The position numbers were made by a program, and so were the translations under genes. 47,567 nt of DNA from a virus (Duplodnaviria > Heunggongvirae > Uroviricota > Caudoviricetes), in the IMG/VR virus record IMGVR_UViG_2913112809_000003. The stretch is one strand, 5' to 3'. Of this stretch, positions 3,798 to 30,754 are shown in pieces (the first letter of the stretch is position 1; every line of letters begins with the position of its first letter). Below the pieces are notes generated by a model that saw only the letters and a program-made list of their open reading frames with translations, ran no database searches and was not told the DNA's origin.

Positions 3798-5450
3798 TCA
3801 CCCCCAGAATGCATCACCATCGGTCATGCGGGAACGCTGACCAAAATTAATATCTCCCAGATTTCTCATTACCCTGTCTGCCAGTTGTCCGGCATCCTCG
3901 CCGGGCTTCTGGGTGATGTTAAATTCCGCTCGTATCTGATACGTGGGTTTTACTTCCACCTGGCTGATATTGCCGGGGGTATACTGAAGAGCCGAGAGAG
4001 GGTCCGAATTACCCTGCCCATGGTCTGCTGCAGGAAGTCCGTCAATGTAGGTGCGGGATTTCTCTTTTATCGCCTTAAAATCAGGTTCTTCTTTCGGCCC
4101 CAACAAAGGGTCGAGAAAAGCATCAAACTTTTTATCATCATGATTCCAGGGGAGATAACCGCGAGTGTCTTTATAGGCCTGTACAACCTGTTTCGTCAGC
4201 TCCGGATTTTGCCTGAGCAGTTCATCAAACCACTCCCCCTGACCGTTTTTCTGCGCTACCGCTCTCGCCAGCTCCGGCGACCCCATTTTTGCCAGATATT
4301 CCAGCACTTCTCGTCGGTCCTCTCGCGGATCATCCGCCAGCCCCCACTCAATGGCTTTCTGCGTTATTCCGGCAAGAACTTTTCCAAATTTCCACATCCA
4401 CGCAGCCATGTCGATCAGCGCCGGCAGGGCATCATCACGGATAAATGCCCGGATTTTTTCCAGCCCACCATTCTTAAACCAGGCCGCAAGGTCATCCGTC
4501 ACCTGTTGAATATGTGGAGCAAGTTCATTACCCAGCTGTCCGCTGATTTCATCAATTGAAGAACTCAGAACATAACGGAAATTTGACAACGCCACATGCC
4601 CCTGAACTGCGCCATCAGCCCCTTCCTTTGTCACCAGGTTATAGCGTTTCTGCTCACTGATAAGTTCCTGGAAGGTCTTTCCTGACAGACGCATCCAGGT
4701 CAGGATTTTATTGGCTTCACCACCAAATAACGCATCTGCCATCCCCGCAGCCTGCTGCTCATTCGCCACCTGCAGTAAGCGTTCAAACAAAAACTCGACC
4801 TGCTCCTGGTTGTTTTTTCCGGCCATTACGCCCGCTTTCAGCCCAAGTTTACCGAATACGTCCTGAATGGCTCCTTTGTCCTTGGCACCATTATCATCGT
4901 CAAAAACCTTGTTCCGGTATTCCTCAAACAGATCACCGATGTTTTCGCCGTTTAACCCCATCTGCCGGCCCAGTGAATCCCACGCCGCATAGGTTTCATA
5001 ATCCACCCCGTAACTCCGGGCTATCCCTGACCGCTCTGCCGTTTCCGCATTCCGGTTCAGTACCGCGCCGGCACCGGCTGCCAGCGTAAGCCCGGAACCA
5101 ACCGAAAGCCCCAGCCCGGTTTTAAGAACAGTCCCGGCCCGTCCTTTCCAGCGTTCCAGACGTTCTGCCCGCGCCAGCTTACGGTTAAATTTATCCTGTT
5201 CCCCGGTGGCATCATGAATTTTTCTGCCCAGCTTTTCATACTGCTTTCGCAGTTCGGTAATATCCTGTCCTGCCAGTACACCAGCCTGAATTTTTCGTTT
5301 CAGTACGTCCTGCTGGCGTGTCAGGCGAGCCACTTCCTGTGTTGCCCCTGATAATCCGTGCTTCAGTCCATCAACCGATTTTTTCCACGACGGATCTATC
5401 GAACCTCCGATCCGGATATTCGCTTTAAGGTTATCGCCCACCGTTGCCAT
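3798..5450 (-). CDS. tail tape measure protein
   Basis: 550-aa ORF, Ala/Gly/Leu-rich and predicted helical, directly downstream of the E/E' chaperone gene. Confidence 0.8.
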   Translation of the reverse strand: MATVGDNLKANIRIGGSIDPSWKKSVDGLKHGLSGATQEVARLTRQQDVLKRKIQAGVLAGQDITELRKQYEKLGRKIHDATGEQDKFNRKLARAERLERWKGRAGTVLKTGLGLSVGSGLTLAAGAGAVLNRNAETAERSGIARSYGVDYETYAAWDSLGRQMGLNGENIGDLFEEYRNKVFDDDNGAKDKGAIQDVFGKLGLKAGVMAGKNNQEQVEFLFERLLQVANEQQAAGMADALFGGEANKILTWMRLSGKTFQELISEQKRYNLVTKEGADGAVQGHVALSNFRYVLSSSIDEISGQLGNELAPHIQQVTDDLAAWFKNGGLEKIRAFIRDDALPALIDMAAWMWKFGKVLAGITQKAIEWGLADDPREDRREVLEYLAKMGSPELARAVAQKNGQGEWFDELLRQNPELTKQVVQAYKDTRGYLPWNHDDKKFDAFLDPLLGPKEEPDFKAIKEKSRTYIDGLPAADHGQGNSDPLSALQYTPGNISQVEVKPTYQIRAEFNITQKPGEDAGQLADRVMRNLGDINFGQRSRMTDGDAFWG

Positions 5451-5870
5451 AACATCGCTTCCTCTCTTCCGACTCCGCCAGCATCATTGCCACAAAATCC
5501 GTATACGGCAGCGCCATCACATCTCCCGGAGACCACCCGAACCAGGCACCGGCGCGCCGTATCGCCGTCAGGATGCTTTCTTCTTCCGCCGGACCGGCGG
5601 CAGCAAAAAAACATTGAACTGCCGCTCCAGGGTCAGGTAATCACACGCTTCCATGTTCATCATGTCCGCCGCGTCCATCCCGCACAGACCGGCAATCATA
5701 TCCAGATCAGCCTCTGCTTCCGGTTTGGTACTCCGGCGATGCAACAGACGATCGCGGACGGTAGGCGCACGCATGGTGACATGCGTGATCGTCTGTCCTG
5801 ATGCGGTGACATACGGCACGGATAACACAATTTCCACACTGCTGGCGGGAACACTGTTTTTTTCCAACAT
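5431..5870 (-). CDS. tail assembly chaperone E+E' (predicted -1 frameshift fusion product)
   Basis: The -1 frame stays open from the slippery heptamer (minus strand, plus coordinates 5604-5610) to a TAA at 5431-5433, adding about 56 acidic residues and overlapping the tape measure start, as in P2 E/E' and lambda G/GT. Confidence 0.5.
5568..5870 (-). CDS. tail assembly chaperone E (zero-frame product)
   Basis: 100-aa ORF between tail tube and tape measure genes; contains the slippery tract T TTT TTG near its 3' end. Confidence 0.75.
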   Translation of the reverse strand: MLEKNSVPASSVEIVLSVPYVTASGQTITHVTMRAPTVRDRLLHRRSTKPEAEADLDMIAGLCGMDAADMMNMEACDYLTLERQFNVFLLPPVRRKKKAS

Positions 5871-6450: not shown

Positions 6451-7922
6451 ACTGTCAGCTCCTCCAGCGCCAGTTTATTGTTAATCATCGCCCGCAGTGT
6501 CAGGCGCTCCAGTGGTGACTTCGGCCCAAAGTCATAATCAATATACAACCGCCCTGCCGCCAGGGTTTCTGCTGTATTCAGTTCATCATTCAGCCAGGCA
6601 CTGCCCCCGTGGATCGCGCCCAGATTTTTAAGCTGGCGCATATAGGCATTAATACTGCCAAGAATGTCTTCTGCCACATCCCGATCAAGCGGTCGGTCGA
6701 CATAAGGCAGCATGGCCTCCTGAATGCTGTCTTCAATCACATCTGCTGTACGGCGTACCGGCTCAAAACGCCACTGGCTGTGGGATGAGCACAGACGGTT
6801 CCCCCAGTGTTTAAAACCGTCGTGGCGAATAATGGTGGAGATATTTTCCATGTTCAGCAGGTTTGCTGTGCAGTTCTGCTCTCCGAGAATAAATGTGTCA
6901 ACCTGCTCCAGTCCGGTGATATTCATCACGTCCTGGTTTGACTTGGACCACCACCATCCTTTTTCGTAATCAATACGGGCACGTAGCCCTGCAGCTCGTG
7001 CTGAATACGGACGAAATACCGTCTGCCCGCTGTCATCCATCACTGACACGCGCGGACGCAGCAGCTCCACACGCCCGCCAAAGGACGCACGTCGCTGAAC
7101 CACATCCTGCGGCGTTGCCATTGAGGGAGAGTCTATATAGGCCACGGCCCGTAACTTCGCTGCGTACGTTTCCAGCGCCTTTGCCACGCCATCATCCTCA
7201 CTGTAACCAGTAGCGATAAGAATGCGCGGCTGGTAGCCCGTTTTTCCTTTGCTTTCCATCAGGGCTTCCATTGCCCGAATGACTGCCGCGCGCTGTTCTG
7301 CTTCCTTTGCCTTCGTTTTGCTTTCCGCACGCACCACAATCACCAGCGCACCTGTCTGGTCAAAAATATCACGCAGGGCCGGATATAATGTCCCGGCTGC
7401 GCCCAGTTTCCCGGCCTGAGTTAACGCCCCCGCCACCACCACCGGTGTATTAACCGGAAACGCCTCATCCTCTCCGCCGGATAAGGTCAGACTGAACGGC
7501 GACACCACATTATTTTCTGCACCCTCTGCATTCAGTGGACTGACCGCCACTGTCACTGGCGAATCACCCAGTGCATTCACCACCTCAATCACACGAGCCA
7601 CCGTGGTGTTAACCTGGCTGCGTTCATCCGTACCCAGCGTTATCATCAGGGTCGAACCTTCCAGCGAAGCCGCTGTCTGCGCGCTTTGCTTTGTGGCAGC
7701 GACAGCAACAACCGAAATATTATTGCCAGCCCTACCTTCCTGTTTCGCCGTAAAATCCAGCGCCGTTCCCAGCAGCCACGAACCGGCTGTACCGGAAGCA
7801 CACACACCACCGGAGGCGTCCGGCGCGGTCCCCACCAGGCCAATTACAGCTGTGGAGATGGTCTGCACGGCAACCGTGCCTGTCGTCAGTTCAATGGTTT
7901 CAACACCATGTAGTCCGGACAT
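6447..7922 (-). CDS. tail sheath protein (P2 FI-like)
   Basis: Start set at the in-frame ATG at 7922 preceded by GGGAGA; N-terminus MSGLHGVETIE aligns with the P2 FI N-terminus as recalled. Confidence 0.9.
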   Translation of the reverse strand: MSGLHGVETIELTTGTVAVQTISTAVIGLVGTAPDASGGVCASGTAGSWLLGTALDFTAKQEGRAGNNISVVAVAATKQSAQTAASLEGSTLMITLGTDERSQVNTTVARVIEVVNALGDSPVTVAVSPLNAEGAENNVVSPFSLTLSGGEDEAFPVNTPVVVAGALTQAGKLGAAGTLYPALRDIFDQTGALVIVVRAESKTKAKEAEQRAAVIRAMEALMESKGKTGYQPRILIATGYSEDDGVAKALETYAAKLRAVAYIDSPSMATPQDVVQRRASFGGRVELLRPRVSVMDDSGQTVFRPYSARAAGLRARIDYEKGWWWSKSNQDVMNITGLEQVDTFILGEQNCTANLLNMENISTIIRHDGFKHWGNRLCSSHSQWRFEPVRRTADVIEDSIQEAMLPYVDRPLDRDVAEDILGSINAYMRQLKNLGAIHGGSAWLNDELNTAETLAAGRLYIDYDFGPKSPLERLTLRAMINNKLALEELTV

Positions 7923-7933
7923 ACATTTCTCCC

Positions 7934-7958
7934 ATAAAAAAACCGCCCTTAAGGCGGT
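7934..7958 (-). terminator. intrinsic terminator between the fiber operon and the sheath operon
   Basis: Hairpin ACCGCC-cttaa-GGCGGT followed on the minus strand by a T7 run, lying between the Tfa stop (7978) and the sheath start (7922). Confidence 0.5.
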
Positions 7959-7977
7959 CAGATAATTCATTTCTTTT

Positions 7978-8523
7978 TCAGATATTTTGTGGTGGCTCAG
8001 GCCAGACGATATTGTTGTAAGTGGCCTTATCCGAAATATTGCTGAAATCCATCATCTGCAATTTCTTTGCGTAAATACGGTACGCCTTCAGCTTTTCTTT
8101 ATCTTCGTCGCTGATTAACCCAAGTTGCAGGTCTTTTTCCCACTCGCTGGTCACGATACTGACCTGCTTTAACAGAGCATCGCGTTCGTCTTCTGCTTTT
8201 AATTTGTAGTCGAAAACAAATTCATCATTCCGGTAAAACCAGTAGCCTGACGCTGCAATACGACGATTCGCGGTAATGTCCGGCAGTTCAATTACGCTTT
8301 TATTTTCCGGGCAAACCGATGTGATATTTTTCCCGACCCAGACGACTTCTCCCGTTTTGACATAAATCACTTTGAGAGTGTCTGGCTGAAATTTTTCCTG
8401 AGCTTCATGCCATTCCTGACCATCCTCTGAGAACAGCCACAATAAAAATTTATGCTGTCGTGCCAGTTGGTATTGCTCAATCGTTTTAGGGTTCTGAACA
8501 GAAATATTTTTTAAATGCATCAT
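7978..8523 (-). CDS. tail fiber assembly protein (second Tfa copy)
   Basis: 181-aa ORF immediately downstream of the gpH-like fiber gene; C-terminal region is similar to the Tfa at 1-603. Confidence 0.75.
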   Translation of the reverse strand: MMHLKNISVQNPKTIEQYQLARQHKFLLWLFSEDGQEWHEAQEKFQPDTLKVIYVKTGEVVWVGKNITSVCPENKSVIELPDITANRRIAASGYWFYRNDEFVFDYKLKAEDERDALLKQVSIVTSEWEKDLQLGLISDEDKEKLKAYRIYAKKLQMMDFSNISDKATYNNIVWPEPPQNI

Positions 8524-25968: not shown

Positions 25969-26121
25969 TTATTCAGATTTACGCAGTAAAGGCCGGAGCA
26001 CGACCAGCGCCATTGCCACCAGCACACCATCTGCCAGTACCGACATCAGCCGTCCGGTGAAATCCACCACCACTACCAGAAACAGCAGGATGGTAGCCAG
26101 CACAAGGCGCGCACATTTCAC
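25969..26121 (-). CDS. small hydrophobic peptide (50 aa) translationally coupled to the TerB-like gene
   Basis: GTG at 26121-26119 overlaps the TerB-like stop (TGA 26120-26118) with GGAG 8 nt upstream; encodes VKCARLVLATILLFLVVVVDFTGRLMSVLADGVLVAMALVVLRPLLRKSE. Confidence 0.35.
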   Translation of the reverse strand: MKCARLVLATILLFLVVVVDFTGRLMSVLADGVLVAMALVVLRPLLRKSE

Positions 26122-26543
26122 AGGTACTGCTCCAGCGGCAACTGCAGCGCCTGAGCAATTTTCTTGAGCTGTGTCTCCTCCTCCGGACCAATGCCATCCT
26201 GGTCAGCAATATCCAGACACAGGCACAGCACATTAACTGCGTCATCAGTACCGGCAACATCAGCCAGTTGACGAAGGGCTTCGGCATTGGCAGAACGAGG
26301 TGACGCCTCATAACGGGCGCGGATATTGGCACTCATCTGGGCAATCTCACCGGAGAACGGCGCAAAGGCAGGAAGTGCTGCAATGGTTTTCTCCAGTACC
26401 GCGATTTCTTTCGCATCACAAGTACCGTCGGCGAATGCAATGGAATACGCACCCCAGACAGTCGCCTCCACTGCATCGCGGTTCTCCATTTTCTTTACTT
26501 CAGTAATGGCTTTGCGGGTTTTCTTTTTGAAAATACCAAACAT
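26118..26543 (-). CDS. TerB-domain protein
   Basis: 141-aa ORF aligning with the TerB signature regions as recalled: AFADGTCDAKEIAVLEK and LDIADQDGIGPEEETQLKKIAQALQL. Confidence 0.75.
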   Translation of the reverse strand: MFGIFKKKTRKAITEVKKMENRDAVEATVWGAYSIAFADGTCDAKEIAVLEKTIAALPAFAPFSGEIAQMSANIRARYEASPRSANAEALRQLADVAGTDDAVNVLCLCLDIADQDGIGPEEETQLKKIAQALQLPLEQYL

Positions 26544-26723
26544 CGTGACTTTTCCTTTTAGTGGGTGAGCCTGCGCCCGGGGGTGACCAGCCCACAGAGA
26601 AAGTCACACTGACCATCCCGTAAGCTCACCCCTGAAAGGCTCTGTGGTTTTTGATGTGCGCCGGGCGTGGCGCGGAAATAAAAAAGGCCCGCCGTAGCAA
26701 GCCATGAAGAAACTGAATTCAGA

Positions 26724-26750
26724 ATAAAAAAAAACCGCCAGATATGGCGG
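26724..26750 (-). terminator. intrinsic terminator downstream of the tRNA genes
   Basis: Hairpin CCGCCA-tatc-TGGCGG followed on the minus strand by a T9 run. Confidence 0.55.
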
Positions 26751-27112
26751 TTGGTCAATGCATGAAATAAATCATTTTATTGTAATAAGAATCGAGGTGT
26801 CGGGTGCCTCCCGAAATATCCATCCCTACAACAGATATTGTGATTCCCCGCTAAACCACTATATAAACCACCCTCGCACTGAGGAACACCTCTTTAGTGT
26901 TATTTACAACACCGGGATAGTGCATCATCGGCCCTGCCAGGAAATAAAAAAATCTCCACCAATAATGCACCATTCCGTTGTTGTAAAAAAACAGCACTGT
27001 GACTACAACCGAACTCAAATCATAGCCAGAGAACAGAATGTCTTTTAAAAACAACCTGCCCCCACGTAACAAAAAATACGCCAGTGCCACGATACAATAA
27101 GGCTTGTTTCTC

Positions 27113-27192
27113 TGGAGCGGGTCGCGGGAATCGAACCCGCATCATCAGCCTAGAAGGTTGAGCTGAGGTAATAGCCATTATACGATACCCGC
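27113..27192 (-). tRNA. tRNA-like gene, 80 nt, anticodon ambiguous (best fit UCU, Arg)
   Basis: Canonical T-arm GCGGG-TTCGATT-CCCGC, acceptor stem of 6/7 pairs, encoded CCA; an anticodon loop CTTCTAG is only obtained with a mismatched stem and about 5 extra nucleotides 5' of it. Confidence 0.5.
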
Positions 27193-27195
27193 ATA

Positions 27196-27271
<76 letters not shown>

Positions 27272-27439: not shown

Positions 27440-28486
27440 TTAAACACTCAAATCAATTTCATTAACAGTCTGTTTAAATCTGTTTTCCTCAAGCTCCACC
27501 CCAACCGCTTTCCTCCCCAACGACAATGCCGCTTTTATTGTTGAGCCTGAACCCATGAAAAAATCCGCAACCAAATCACCGGGGCGACTGCTGGCAGTAA
27601 TTATCTGACGCAACATATCCGCCGGTTTTTCACAGGGATGTTTGCCGGAGTAATACTGCACTGGCTTGTGCGTCCAGACATCCGTATAAGGAACGGCAGC
27701 CGATACGGAAAAATAACGCCTCAGGGATTTGTACTCCTCCAGCAGACTGACATATTGCCGGTTCAGTTCACTGTATGTGCTGACCAGCTGGTGGTGTGGC
27801 TTTTCCAGTTCACCGCGTTGATGTTTTTCTGCTGCAACACGCGCAAACAACGCCTGCAGTTTTCTGTAATCATCCTCGTTCGGTAACTGCCACTGACTGG
27901 CACCAAACCAGTGCGAAGCCATATTTTTCTTTCCGGTAACTTCCGCTATCTGTTTCGACGTTATCCCCAGTGAATCACGTGCATCACGAAAGTAAGAAAT
28001 CAGCGGGGCCATGACGTGCTGTTTAAGCTCGCGACCCTTTGTCGCGTAGCCGTCATTTTTGGGTTGATATGGTCCCTGATAATGTTCAGCAAACAGAATG
28101 CGCTCTGTTGCCGGGAAATACGCCCGCAGGCTTTCCTTATTGCACCCGTTCCAGCGTCCGGACGGTTTCGCCCAGATAATGTGGTTCAACACATTAAAAC
28201 GTTCACGCATCATGATTTCGATATCAGATGCCAGGCGATGCCCACAGAACAGGTAAAGACTTCCGGCAGGTTTCAGTACCCGCCAGAACTGCGCCAGACA
28301 CTGGTCCAGCCATTTCAGGTAATCATCGTCGCCCTTCCACTGGTTATCCCAGCCTTCGGGCTTCACTTTAAAGTATGGCGGGTCTGTGACTATCAGATCG
28401 ACAGAGTTTTCCGGTAAAGTCTGGATAAATTCCAGGCAATCAGCGTTGATTAATTCACAACTGGATATTTTTACAGTATCAACCAT
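27440..28486 (-). CDS. DNA methyltransferase (beta-class, N6-adenine or N4-cytosine), apparently orphan
   Basis: 348-aa ORF with catalytic motif DPPY near the N-terminus and the S-adenosylmethionine-binding motif FFMGSGST near the C-terminus; no adjacent restriction endonuclease gene. Confidence 0.9.
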   Translation of the reverse strand: MVDTVKISSCELINADCLEFIQTLPENSVDLIVTDPPYFKVKPEGWDNQWKGDDDYLKWLDQCLAQFWRVLKPAGSLYLFCGHRLASDIEIMMRERFNVLNHIIWAKPSGRWNGCNKESLRAYFPATERILFAEHYQGPYQPKNDGYATKGRELKQHVMAPLISYFRDARDSLGITSKQIAEVTGKKNMASHWFGASQWQLPNEDDYRKLQALFARVAAEKHQRGELEKPHHQLVSTYSELNRQYVSLLEEYKSLRRYFSVSAAVPYTDVWTHKPVQYYSGKHPCEKPADMLRQIITASSRPGDLVADFFMGSGSTIKAALSLGRKAVGVELEENRFKQTVNEIDLSV

Positions 28487-28837: not shown

Positions 28838-28955
28838 TTTTTCCCTTTTCTGGTTAACGTGACATACCAATAACTCTTGTCTAAAAAGCCAGCAAGCAAT
28901 AGATGTAAATGAGGTAAAAAATCAGCCCTGGCAGGATGGCTGGAATGTAACCTTG

Positions 28956-29672
28956 TTAATTGTTACCGATTTTACTTAACATATCCGCATAAGGTTCAAG
29001 CATGGAGTCAAGTAATGCGCCATTATCCGTAAACCTCCTGGCGGCCAGGTTGCATGCTTCAATAGATTCTTCGCAGTCCTTTTCAATTTTATCCTTCAGA
29101 AGAGAATAAAGTATAAATGTTATTTTTGTAGTCTTATAGGCGTTTTGCGACTTATAAGCATTATCAAAAAATTTTATATGGTTTCCATGAATATTTTGAG
29201 ACTCAAGGTTTAAAGCGATAGAAAAACACTCTGCTCTTGGCATAATAATATTTTCAATATTGGAGCAAATAAACTCCACATTATCGCCTTCGTTAAGGAA
29301 CTCTAGCTCACCTTCTGATTTCTTATCATAGTAAGCATAAAACGATTCAAATCCCCTATCACTATCCCTTAGCAGAACAAAAAATCTATCACCAAGACTT
29401 TGCTTAATTGCCCGGGCTGTTGAGTTTATGATGAATATATCTTTATACTTTTTCTTCGCTCTCAATTCATTATTATTGAAGTCGTCTATAATCTCACTCG
29501 CTGAATATCTTTTAAGTCCATCAAGATACTGGATAGCCATTGCTTGCCCTGTAGGCAAAAAAAATGAAAATGCCCTACTGTTACTGGCGCTTATGTATTC
29601 ATTACTAGTGGCATAACACTGAGATATCGATAGTGCAATAAAAAATGAAAACAGCTTAATTAGTTTATGCAT
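28956..29672 (-). CDS. AT-rich secreted protein of unknown function (moron)
   Basis: ATG at 29672 with an AGGTGA site; N-terminal signal peptide MHKLIKLFSFFIALSISQCYA; GC content far below its neighbours. Confidence 0.7.
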   Translation of the reverse strand: MHKLIKLFSFFIALSISQCYATSNEYISASNSRAFSFFLPTGQAMAIQYLDGLKRYSASEIIDDFNNNELRAKKKYKDIFIINSTARAIKQSLGDRFFVLLRDSDRGFESFYAYYDKKSEGELEFLNEGDNVEFICSNIENIIMPRAECFSIALNLESQNIHGNHIKFFDNAYKSQNAYKTTKITFILYSLLKDKIEKDCEESIEACNLAARRFTDNGALLDSMLEPYADMLSKIGNN

Positions 29673-29824
29673 AAATATCACCTATTGAAACAACGGATTT
29701 TCAATAGTAATGATATTCATCATTCCATAATTTGATATCAGTCAATAACGAATTGACATCTTTTAACGCATAGCAGCACACATTAACCAAGATTCACTGA
29801 TGAATGCCACCTGAAATCTATCAC

Positions 29825-29850
29825 AACAAAAAAACCCGCTCGGCGGCGGG
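29825..29850 (-). terminator. tR'-like intrinsic terminator downstream of the Q-like gene
   Basis: Hairpin CCCGC-cgccga-GCGGG followed on the minus strand by a T7 run, about 85 nt after the Q stop codon. Confidence 0.5.
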
Positions 29851-29892
29851 TTGTAGAAATCCTTCTAACGTCAGGCATAAAACGCCCATCGT

Positions 29893-29927
29893 TAGGGCAA
29901 ATTTACCACAGATTCGGGAAAAATCAA
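29893..29927 (-). promoter_or_regulatory. putative late promoter (pR'-like)
   Basis: Minus-strand TTGATT, 16-nt spacer, TAAATT, beginning 6 nt after the Q stop and about 50-65 nt upstream of the terminator. Confidence 0.4.
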
Positions 29928-29932
29928 CAACA

Positions 29933-30754
29933 CTATCGCGTTACCCTCTTTAACTGCTGCTCTGCCCATGCCTCTTCAATGTCAAACAGAACCACCAATG
30001 TATCGTAAAAGCGTTTCACTGATTTTTTCCACGTATCAAGCGTGATAGCACTCGTCACTTTGCATATGGCATTAAATGCCTCCGTTGATGGCAGCCTTTC
30101 ATAGCCACGACCACCACAACGCTGACAGTTTCTGAAAACTGGTACGCCCTGCTTTTCCGACTCTTCACGATGAATGGCAACACCGCGTCCACGGCAATCT
30201 TTACAGGCAGTGGAAATCTCCCCCTTCCCTTTACATTCAGGACAGGAGACTTTCACCACCTCCCGGATTTTTTTCCATTCTTCCCAGTAAGACGGATACA
30301 CACCTTTAGTACACTTTGCCCATACTGGCGGCTTGCCATCCGGATACTGAACCTTGTTTGTAAAGACTTCGCTTTCAATAAATTTTTCCCCTCGGCAACA
30401 AGGGCATTGCTTTTTACTCGCTGCACTGCGGGCATAATCCTCAAAAGCATACGAAGCCATAATGTGCATCACTGCCGGTTTTATTTCTGCCGGGAGTTTC
30501 CTTAACGCCGCGACGCGATCGCACCGACTTAATGCATAATCTGCCAGTAATTCTGTTGCCCGCATCCTGTCATTCATACTAATACCCATTTTCCCCAGGA
30601 ACGCAGAAAATCCCATCTCAGCCCGGTTCTGTGTCATACCCTGCGCAGCCATCACATCAGTGATACTCAGCGCATCTTTTGACGTCGAGGCAGACGCATC
30701 AGTCAGGCCTGGCGATTTTGGGGAATAGTATTTCGGTAAATCTTCCAGTTTCAT
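29933..30754 (-). CDS. putative late-gene antiterminator (Q-like) with CxxC zinc-finger repeats
   Basis: 273-aa ORF directly downstream of rusA and upstream of the promoter/terminator pair; four CxxC motifs, three in a CxxCxGxG context; assignment rests largely on position. Confidence 0.55.
   Translation of the reverse strand: MKLEDLPKYYSPKSPGLTDASASTSKDALSITDVMAAQGMTQNRAEMGFSAFLGKMGISMNDRMRATELLADYALSRCDRVAALRKLPAEIKPAVMHIMASYAFEDYARSAASKKQCPCCRGEKFIESEVFTNKVQYPDGKPPVWAKCTKGVYPSYWEEWKKIREVVKVSCPECKGKGEISTACKDCRGRGVAIHREESEKQGVPVFRNCQRCGGRGYERLPSTEAFNAICKVTSAITLDTWKKSVKRFYDTLVVLFDIEEAWAEQQLKRVTR

Follow-up and report, generated by a model that had tools for sequence, protein, structure and literature searches.

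A phage-borne OB-fold protein with predicted export is encoded by an AT-rich accessory cassette in the late-operon leader of a lambdoid prophage

The 47,567-nt virus record IMGVR_UViG_2913112809_000003 of IMG/VR (Caudoviricetes), the whole of which is called the window here, carries an AT-rich open reading frame (ORF) directly behind the late promoter of a lambdoid prophage. What kind of protein does this gene encode, how did it reach this site, and does it serve the phage or act as a virulence factor like Shiga toxin (Stx)? An earlier model reading of the letters alone (the sequence-only reading) had described a secreted protein of no assignable family, recently acquired and placed where stx lies in Stx phages. 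In this study, the protein was identified as a member of PF12869/phrog_13333, in a subgroup marked by a predicted signal peptide, an added helical domain and four cysteine residues that are conserved. An action in the cell envelope on behalf of the phage was considered more likely than a role as a Shiga-toxin-like virulence factor.

The gene itself was confirmed as the sequence-only reading had drawn it. The ORF lies on the minus strand at 28956..29672, encodes 238 amino acids (aa) and starts at the ATG at 29672; the N-termini of homologues are uniformly MHKLIK or MRKIIN at the equivalent Met. The ORF listing extends to a GTG at 29681, but this codon is part of the Shine-Dalgarno sequence, and homologues begin at the equivalent ATG; it was therefore rejected as a start. 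The ratio of nonsynonymous to synonymous substitution rates (Ka/Ks) was 0.23–0.24 for four homologues with 66–93% amino-acid identity. This ratio showed that the ORF is under purifying selection and is a genuine coding gene, not an AT-rich artefact.

The protein could be assigned to PF12869 and phrog_13333 by profile, motif and fold, so the earlier statement that no family fits was not upheld. As a single sequence, it matched PF12869 ("tRNA_anti-like") with 21.3 bits and E 2.2e-4, slightly short of the gathering cut-off of 23.5, and phrog_13333 with E 1.5e-8. All 26 aligned full-length relatives (alignment A2) matched PF12869 at E <= 0.001 (best 7.5e-17) and phrog_13333 (best 2.5e-80). PF12869 matches were already precomputed for homologues of 65–92% identity, and the PGAP name of the E. 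coli orthologues is "OB-fold protein". A similarity to phrog_8545, "superinfection exclusion Sie-like", covered the OB domain only; it was found at E 0.0098 (16.7 bits) for the single sequence and at E <= 0.001 for 23 of the 26 relatives (best 8.6e-23).

A word-indexed search returned just 8 close clusters, from Escherichia and Salmonella, and an exhaustive profile search returned 197 relatives. The related-locus search with alignment A1 gave two IMG/VR contigs and none among species-representative genomes. No match was obtained by tblastn of the protein itself against 50,697 phage records; the relatives in phage records (HP2/S2, Carl1, IFTN and a Klebsiella phage) were reached only through more distant family members. 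NCBIfam and PADLOC gave no match for the protein, and the profile search of PDB sequences returned chance-level matches only (8HER, E 0.046; 2YTX, E 1.1).

The relatives in A2 share one architecture, composed of a signal peptide, an N-terminal helix, an NE(L/V)xAxKKYKGK motif, an OB domain and a helical tail. N68, C136 and C149 were invariant, and C200 and C207 nearly so. The AlphaFold model obtained with A2 had a predicted local distance difference test score (pLDDT) of 84.8 and showed a helix at residues 32–51, a strand-rich OB domain at 55–150 and helices at 156–233. The model rests on this 26-sequence alignment; that obtained with a 9-sequence alignment of close homologues had a pLDDT of 37 and was unusable. 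The predicted OB barrel superposed on 3F1Z, the solved structure of PF12869, and the helical C-terminal domain had no structural or Pfam match of its own. Two disulfides, C136-C149 and C200-C207, are probably formed, since in the model these pairs lie on adjacent strands (131–141 and 145–150) and across a helix-turn-helix (200/207).

The N-terminus had the Sec-like layout of a signal peptide, with an n-region MHKLIK, an h-region LFSFFIALSIS (Kyte-Doolittle up to 2.35) and a c-region SQCYA/TS (the slash marks cleavage). Homologues retain SQSYA/AD, consistent with the -3/-1 rule. In the AlphaFold model, residues 5–16 formed a detached helix of low pLDDT, and the confident fold began at about residue 32. 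An export-like N-terminus was found in 142 of 157 relatives (~90%), being signal-peptide-like in 66, a lipobox in 35 and transmembrane-like in 41; the others were mostly fragment-like. Heuristics and family-level evidence thus agreed with the signal peptide proposed earlier, and the protein is inferred to be Sec-exported and periplasmic. The partner domains of longer relatives were TM2 (above the Pfam cut-off), Sel1 (strong) and, below threshold, SH3_3 and PG_binding_1, with no nucleic-acid enzyme domains among them. The results placed the protein in phrog_13333, an uncharacterised family whose OB-fold members are encoded by phages and exported.

The base composition of the gene was strongly deviant, as the sequence-only reading had remarked. 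The guanine-plus-cytosine (GC) content of the ORF was 0.346 (0.326 at third codon positions), about 3 standard deviations under the mean of 0.496 in the window; the neighbouring genes for Q, the 77-aa protein and the methylase were at 0.48. Of 937 sliding windows of 717 nt, only 4 had a GC content as low, every one of them at this locus. Alignment with empty-site and other-cargo prophages delimited a cassette of leader, ORF and 3' trailer: identity ended right past the T-run of the terminator (~29827) and restarted at GCTTGCTGGCTTTTT (~28896). In the Stx2e prophage of strain STEC383 (locus L003), the cassette was missing and ~75 nt of other sequence stood in its place, with flanks 97.7% identical in the search. 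In the Stx2g prophage of strain MFDS1022581 (L004, 3210–3923), the same site was filled by a gene for an unrelated 237-aa protein with multiple transmembrane segments. On either side of this Stx2g cargo stood short sequences resembling each other (TTAAACGYG.TGG.G.TT), suggestive of a site of recombination or duplication.

Among 5426 complete E. coli genomes, 9 carried the gene and 2852 matched the flanks. The closest orthologue in these genomes was that of E. coli PSJ-22 (L001, 6320–6871), with 95.6% DNA identity over a 1151-nt query containing the gene. The PSJ-22 copy was frameshifted and cut to 183 aa, without the helical C-terminal domain, and in that lineage the gene is decaying. The gene is dispensable, as related prophages lack the cassette and the PSJ-22 copy is frameshifted. 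In the plasmid collection, just two E. coli records of 306–311 kb were found, with a 66%-identical variant, and a plasmid link was not obtained. Two hallmarks of a moron, namely presence or absence with sharp borders and a deviant GC content, were found at the cassette; for a third, a promoter and terminator of its own, the consensus scan found no promoter, and a weak hairpin with a T-run is a possible terminator. The AT-rich composition, the polymorphic presence and the low frequency agreed with the recent horizontal acquisition that had been proposed.

The ORF was the first gene past a pR'-like promoter and a tR'-like terminator, as the sequence-only reading had placed it. Downstream of the -10 TAAATT comes AACGATGGG (in the fuller reading, TTGATT-N16-TAAATT and then TGCCCTAACGATGGG). 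The segment GGTAAATTTGCCCTAACGATGGG, which comprises the -10 and the initial transcribed region, was identical to GGTAAATTTGACTCAACGATGGG of lambda pR' at 20 of 23 positions, AACGAT included. The consensus scan missed this promoter because it matches only 8 of 12 consensus positions. In lambda pR', the AACGAT-type element is a -10-like, sigma-70-dependent pause element and the site of Q loading; by analogy, the AACGAT of this prophage looks like such an element. The terminator, with a GC-rich 7-bp stem and a T-run (29852–29828), was kept across the E. coli loci, even where an ORF6N gene lies upstream.

The gene does not occupy the stx slot that had been ascribed to it. In the closest Stx2e and Stx2g prophages, which have the same Q and pR', the gene order was Q, the cassette site, a 65-aa gene, the DNA methylase gene, tRNA genes and stxAB. 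The OB-fold gene, directly after tR', is therefore outside the stx slot, because stxAB sits well downstream, past the tRNA genes. The equivalent of the stxAB place in the window was the 569-nt stretch 26544–27112 between the tRNA genes and a TerB-like gene. This stretch was non-coding and gave sub-threshold Rfam matches only; 364 E. coli genomes matched it, 25 with a coverage of 80% or more, and none had a feature annotated there. The TerB-like gene (tellurite-resistance family; 26118–26543) lies between Q and the lysis genes, and a late-operon backbone with this gene and the N6/N4 methyltransferase gene was also seen in related E. coli prophages. The site right after pR'/tR' is a polymorphic hot-spot for accessory genes, distinct from the stx site: although the Stx2e and Stx2g prophages have near-identical backbones, the site is vacant in the one and taken by unrelated cargo in the other.

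The expression signals of the cassette agreed only in part with the sequence-only reading, which had listed an own ribosome-binding site and a candidate promoter. A consensus scan of the coding strand found no sigma-70-like promoter in the 155-nt leader between the terminator and the start codon, and the candidate promoter was not recovered. A weak promoter in the AT-rich leader, beyond the reach of a consensus scan, is possible. Rfam gave nothing credible on the leader; its best match was Trp_leader with 23.8 bits (cut-off 41), over the pR' transcript and terminator. The ribosome-binding site was present as AGGTGA, 5 nt upstream of the ATG, but it was buried in a stable predicted hairpin. The folding free energy of this hairpin was -19.2 kcal/mol (z -3.3), and none of 200 shuffled sequences folded as well. 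A two-tier hairpin of the same shape with differing stem sequence was also found at the Salmonella homologue (L005, ~7944–8001) and at a 36%-identical homologue (L011, ~192–240), and GGUGA lay in the 3' arm in all three lineages. Covariation analysis by RNAalifold was uninformative, with three independent lineages and indel-rich arms misaligned by MAFFT.

Between 25 and 42 °C, the Shine-Dalgarno sequence had a predicted probability of being unpaired of 0.03–0.04 in the window and in L011 and of about 0.22–0.24 at the Salmonella locus. An RNA thermometer was considered and rejected, because accessibility stayed flat from 25 to 42 °C in all three loci. In the folding model, the hairpin looks like a constitutive translational block, which would keep the dose low or require an activating event. 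RNase III cleavage of the ~20-bp stem as that event is speculation. The features of the locus are collected in Table 1.

Table 1. Positions of the cassette, its parts and the neighbouring late-operon features in the window
Feature	Position	Strand	Basis or remark
Coding sequence, OB-fold protein with predicted export (PF12869 / phrog_13333)	28956..29672	-	238 aa, profile matches, Ka/Ks
Signal peptide (aa 1-22, predicted cleavage CYA/TS)	29607..29672	-	heuristic hydropathy, -3/-1 rule, conserved SQSYA/AD
OB-fold domain (aa 55-150), NELRAKKKYK motif, C136 and C149	29223..29510	-	
Helical C-terminal domain (aa 156-233), C200-x6-C207 pair	28974..29207	-	alignment A2, AlphaFold
AT-rich moron cassette (leader, ORF, 3' trailer), ~930 bp, GC 0.348	about 28896..29827	-	alignment with empty-site and other-cargo prophages
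Leader, 155 nt, moves with the gene	29673..29827	-	still alignable with Salmonella versions, scattered invariant blocks
Predicted hairpin over Shine-Dalgarno AGGUGA (29683-29678) and AU of the start codon	29667..29723	-	57 nt, 20 bp, one 2-nt bulge
Weak hairpin and T-run, 14 nt past the stop codon; possibly the cassette's own terminator	28916..28942	-	read from sequence; terminator scan silent, loop >8 nt
tR'-like intrinsic terminator, AACCCGC-CGCCGA-GCGGGTT and T-run	29828..29852	-	terminator scan: 7 pairs, 5 GC
pR'-like late promoter	29888..29927	-	-35 TTGATT 29927-29922, 16-nt spacer, -10 TAAATT 29905-29900, AACGAT 29893-29888
Q antiterminator gene, 273 aa, directly upstream	29933..30754	-	PF03589 Antiterm E 1.2e-50; phrog_127, phrog_25523
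Next late-operon gene, phrog_331, 77 aa	28637..28870	-	phage backbone, outside the cassette; present with or without it
Backbone N6/N4 DNA methyltransferase gene	27440..28486	-	PF01555 E 1.8e-44
tRNA-Thr(TGT) and tRNA-Arg(TCT)	27113..27271	-	place of stx in related Stx phages: immediately past the tRNA cluster

The positions of relatives were then compared; the sequence-only reading had asked whether homologues share this place in other prophages. Salmonella homologues (69% identity) occupied the same place, in the order Q, an optional ORF6N gene, the OB-fold gene, a 67-aa gene, methylase and holin. At the Salmonella locus L009, the ORF6N gene was seen at 7124–7687, with the pR'-like leader CTAACGATGGG... 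downstream of it; because this leader lies 3' of ORF6N, no other gene comes between the late promoter and terminator and the OB-fold gene. E. coli STEC005 (L002) had a different, short Q and then an ORF6N gene (7173–7739) in front of the OB-fold gene, which kept the same terminator and leader. In a further lambdoid lineage, the gene directly behind a Q of the PF06530 type encoded a 23%-identical relative (P0059). The same place was thus found in Salmonella, and the slot after Q was found again with a different Q family.

A second position was found in myovirus prophages of Pectobacterium, Klebsiella oxytoca, Yersinia pseudotuberculosis and Serratia fonticola, where relatives lay between Baseplate_J and the wedge and tail-fibre genes (L021–L025, ~5001–5800 each), co-oriented and with gaps of ~50 nt. 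A protein with a signal peptide is odd within a virion-assembly operon. In a Klebsiella phage, a relative was inserted on the opposite strand in the baseplate cluster, and two further relatives adjoined head/tail or baseplate genes. The baseplate position hints at a link with receptor specificity.

A third position was beside the repressor gene. In Haemophilus phages HP2 and S2, orf1(S) was situated between cI and int and had the orientation of the pL lysogeny promoter annotated there; it was related with an hhalign probability of 99.75 and retained the signal peptide and both Cys pairs. Burkholderia Carl1 gp37 lay downstream of the immunity repressor gene and was co-oriented with it. Bordetella phage vB_BaM-IFTN4 (OM293953.1) had an unannotated 263-aa ORF with a signal peptide (L028, 3839–4630), also co-oriented downstream of the repressor gene. 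Two opposite-strand ORFs are annotated in its place in the GenBank record, which is probably a mis-annotation. Genes for superinfection exclusion and lysogenic conversion are typical of this region beside the repressor gene. Among the contexts examined, all that were long enough to judge were phage-borne. The occurrence of relatives in phages of Pectobacterium, Serratia, Burkholderia, Bordetella avium and Haemophilus pointed to phage biology, not to host-specific virulence.

An envelope-acting factor that benefits the prophage is the best guess at the function, in its most specific version a protein for superinfection exclusion or entry blocking; by analogy with the relatives this is a tentative proposal, somewhat short of an even chance. 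It is based on the recurrence of the family beside repressor and baseplate or receptor-binding genes, the similarity to the Sie-like PHROG, and TcdC-like genes between cI and int. Such genes have been reported in Lactobacillus and Leuconostoc phages (PMC3575817). In the proposed mechanism, a self-contained accessory cassette of ~930 bp has been placed in the late-operon leader. By its position, the gene must be transcribed by read-through from pR' once Q lets RNA polymerase pass tR'; this Q-dependence is inferred from position. Low expression in the lysogen could also arise from leakage through the terminator or from a weak leader promoter. Translation would be restrained by the conserved hairpin over the Shine-Dalgarno sequence and start codon. 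The product would be a ~25 kDa Sec-exported precursor with a signal peptide, one N-terminal helix, a PF12869-type OB barrel and a helical C-terminal domain. The mature protein may act in the periplasm or at the outer membrane in the service of phage or lysogen, where its OB face would attach to some part of the envelope or of an incoming phage, and entry would be blocked.

Several points weigh against an exclusion role. Classical exclusion needs expression in the lysogen, and the gene at this locus is in the late operon, not in the lysogeny module, with no promoter detected in its leader. The stable hairpin predicts poor translation. At E 0.0098, the match of the protein itself to phrog_8545 is weak, and the PHROG label is an inherited annotation; PADLOC, as stated, had no match. 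We know of no experiment or characterised homologue that links the family to exclusion, and of no ligand for any PF12869 member. The protein therefore cannot be filed as a superinfection-exclusion protein, because its location here is outside the lysogeny module and the exclusion role is putative.

A general envelope-fitness factor would be a broader alternative. Like the periplasmic BOF proteins YdeI/OmdA and YgiW/VisP, the protein would bind porins, peptidoglycan or lipopolysaccharide and alter resistance to antimicrobial peptides, serum or stress, with phage entry not its target. The predicted periplasmic OB fold with its conserved Lys-rich NELRAKKKYK and the weak SH3_3 and PG_binding_1 partner domains of distant relatives agree with such a role, for which periplasmic OB-fold precedents have been summarised (bioRxiv 10.1101/872283). 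The repressor-adjacent placement in three phage groups would suit any lysogenic-conversion gene. However, no Pfam match to the BOF family (PF04076) was found at E <= 0.1, and the judged contexts, all phage-borne and often beside baseplate or tail-fibre genes, suggest phage-receptor biology instead. This explanation is unlikely, at roughly one chance in five.

Could the protein be a helper of the lytic cycle, made only late under Q and exported to act during lysis or afterwards, either by masking receptors on cell debris, which would spare progeny phage, or by modulating lysis timing from the periplasm? The gene heads the late transcript behind Q genes of two unrelated families, an own promoter was not detected in the consensus scan, and the myovirus relatives are co-oriented with late structural genes with ~50-nt gaps that leave no room for obvious signals. 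However, the HP2/S2, Carl1 and IFTN4 relatives lie beside and co-oriented with a repressor gene that is itself expressed in the lysogen. The gene is also dispensable, being absent from close prophages and frameshifted in PSJ-22, and the predicted translational block speaks against bulk late production. A lytic helper was accordingly rated a little lower, as improbable.

A virulence or host-interaction factor, released at prophage induction in the manner of Stx, was given a lower rating again, as quite improbable. The Q-controlled late operon of a lambdoid prophage and the AT-rich foreign DNA would fit such a factor, and several carriers are Shiga toxin-producing E. coli (STEC) strains from goat and mutton. 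OB folds are also used by AB5 B subunits and superantigen-like proteins. No link of the protein to toxins or host-specific virulence was found, and neither its sequence nor its fold was homologous to the A or B subunits of toxins. Nothing that would matter to STEC risk assessment as a new toxin was suggested.

A cytoplasmic tRNA- or DNA-binding role, as the Pfam name would imply, is very unlikely: the OB fold does resemble aminoacyl-tRNA synthetase anticodon-binding and SSB/RPA domains, and TcdC of C. difficile binds G-quadruplex DNA in vitro (PMC3575817), but the signal peptide and four cysteines are conserved, 90% of relatives have export or anchor signals, the PF12869 structure 3F1Z is of a lipoprotein, and experiments have located the related OB domain of TcdC outside the cell, exposed at the surface (bioRxiv 10.1101/872283).

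The envelope-acting reading can be extended from this gene to its family. In this extension, phrog_13333/PF12869 proteins with signal peptides would be a widespread, unrecognised class of periplasmic exclusion or defence proteins of Gram-negative phages, which is a doubtful proposition at present. The class would use three hot-spots, namely the repressor operon, the late-operon leader after Q and the baseplate/tail-fibre cluster. Its OB face would bind a receptor or a component of an incoming phage, possibly the ejected DNA or ejection proteins. In the lambdoid lineage the dose would be set by the hairpin, which would have to be activated, for example through cleavage by RNase III. Taken alone, the gene is ordinary prophage cargo; the hot-spot pattern across the family and the hairpin are a testable lead on the function of PF12869, and the protein offers a handle on this large family of exported OB-fold proteins with a solved structure. 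If exclusion is true, PF12869 would gain a function and a periplasmic OB-fold mechanism would be added to the entry-blocking systems of Gram-negative phages.

The protein was finally compared with named systems. 3F1Z is a putative nucleic-acid-binding lipoprotein of Klebsiella pneumoniae and shares the OB barrel. Compared with PF12869 in general, the present subgroup adds a helical C-terminal domain of ~80 aa with CX6C and a second Cys pair in the barrel; unlike the PF12869 lipoproteins, it has a type I signal peptide and no lipobox. The TcdC C-terminal OB domain is PF12869-related and extracytoplasmic, a likeness drawn from published work (PMC3575817; bioRxiv 10.1101/872283). TcdC differs in being membrane-anchored, in its coiled-coil dimerisation helix and in its Gram-positive host.

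Orf1(S) of HP2/S2 is a full-length homologue with a signal peptide, an OB domain and both Cys pairs, and likewise the product of a phage accessory gene. It differs in lying at cI-int of a P2-like phage, on the pL strand and not in a lambdoid late operon, and its identity is ~24%.

Stx and other cargo between Q and the lysis genes resemble the cassette in being foreign, under pR'/Q and upstream of the lysis genes. The insertion of stx after methylase and tRNAs differs from the insertion directly after tR', and the protein is related to Stx subunits neither in sequence nor in fold. PdpSau of S. aureus (PMC10127798), an accessory gene replacing a toxin gene by the lysis genes, was considered and set aside as a conceptual analogue only, not a relative.

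Extracytoplasmic exclusion proteins include lactococcal Sie2009, S. thermophilus Ltp, P1 Sim, T5 Llp and Cor. The present protein has no demonstrated homology to Ltp, Sim, Llp or Cor, and its gene is in the late operon; placement in the repressor module is found not for this gene but, by position, for its relatives in HP2/S2, Carl1 and IFTN4. Like these exclusion proteins, which are small exported or membrane-anchored prophage products, the family of the OB-fold protein is encoded at moron sites such as the repressor operon and the tail and baseplate region.

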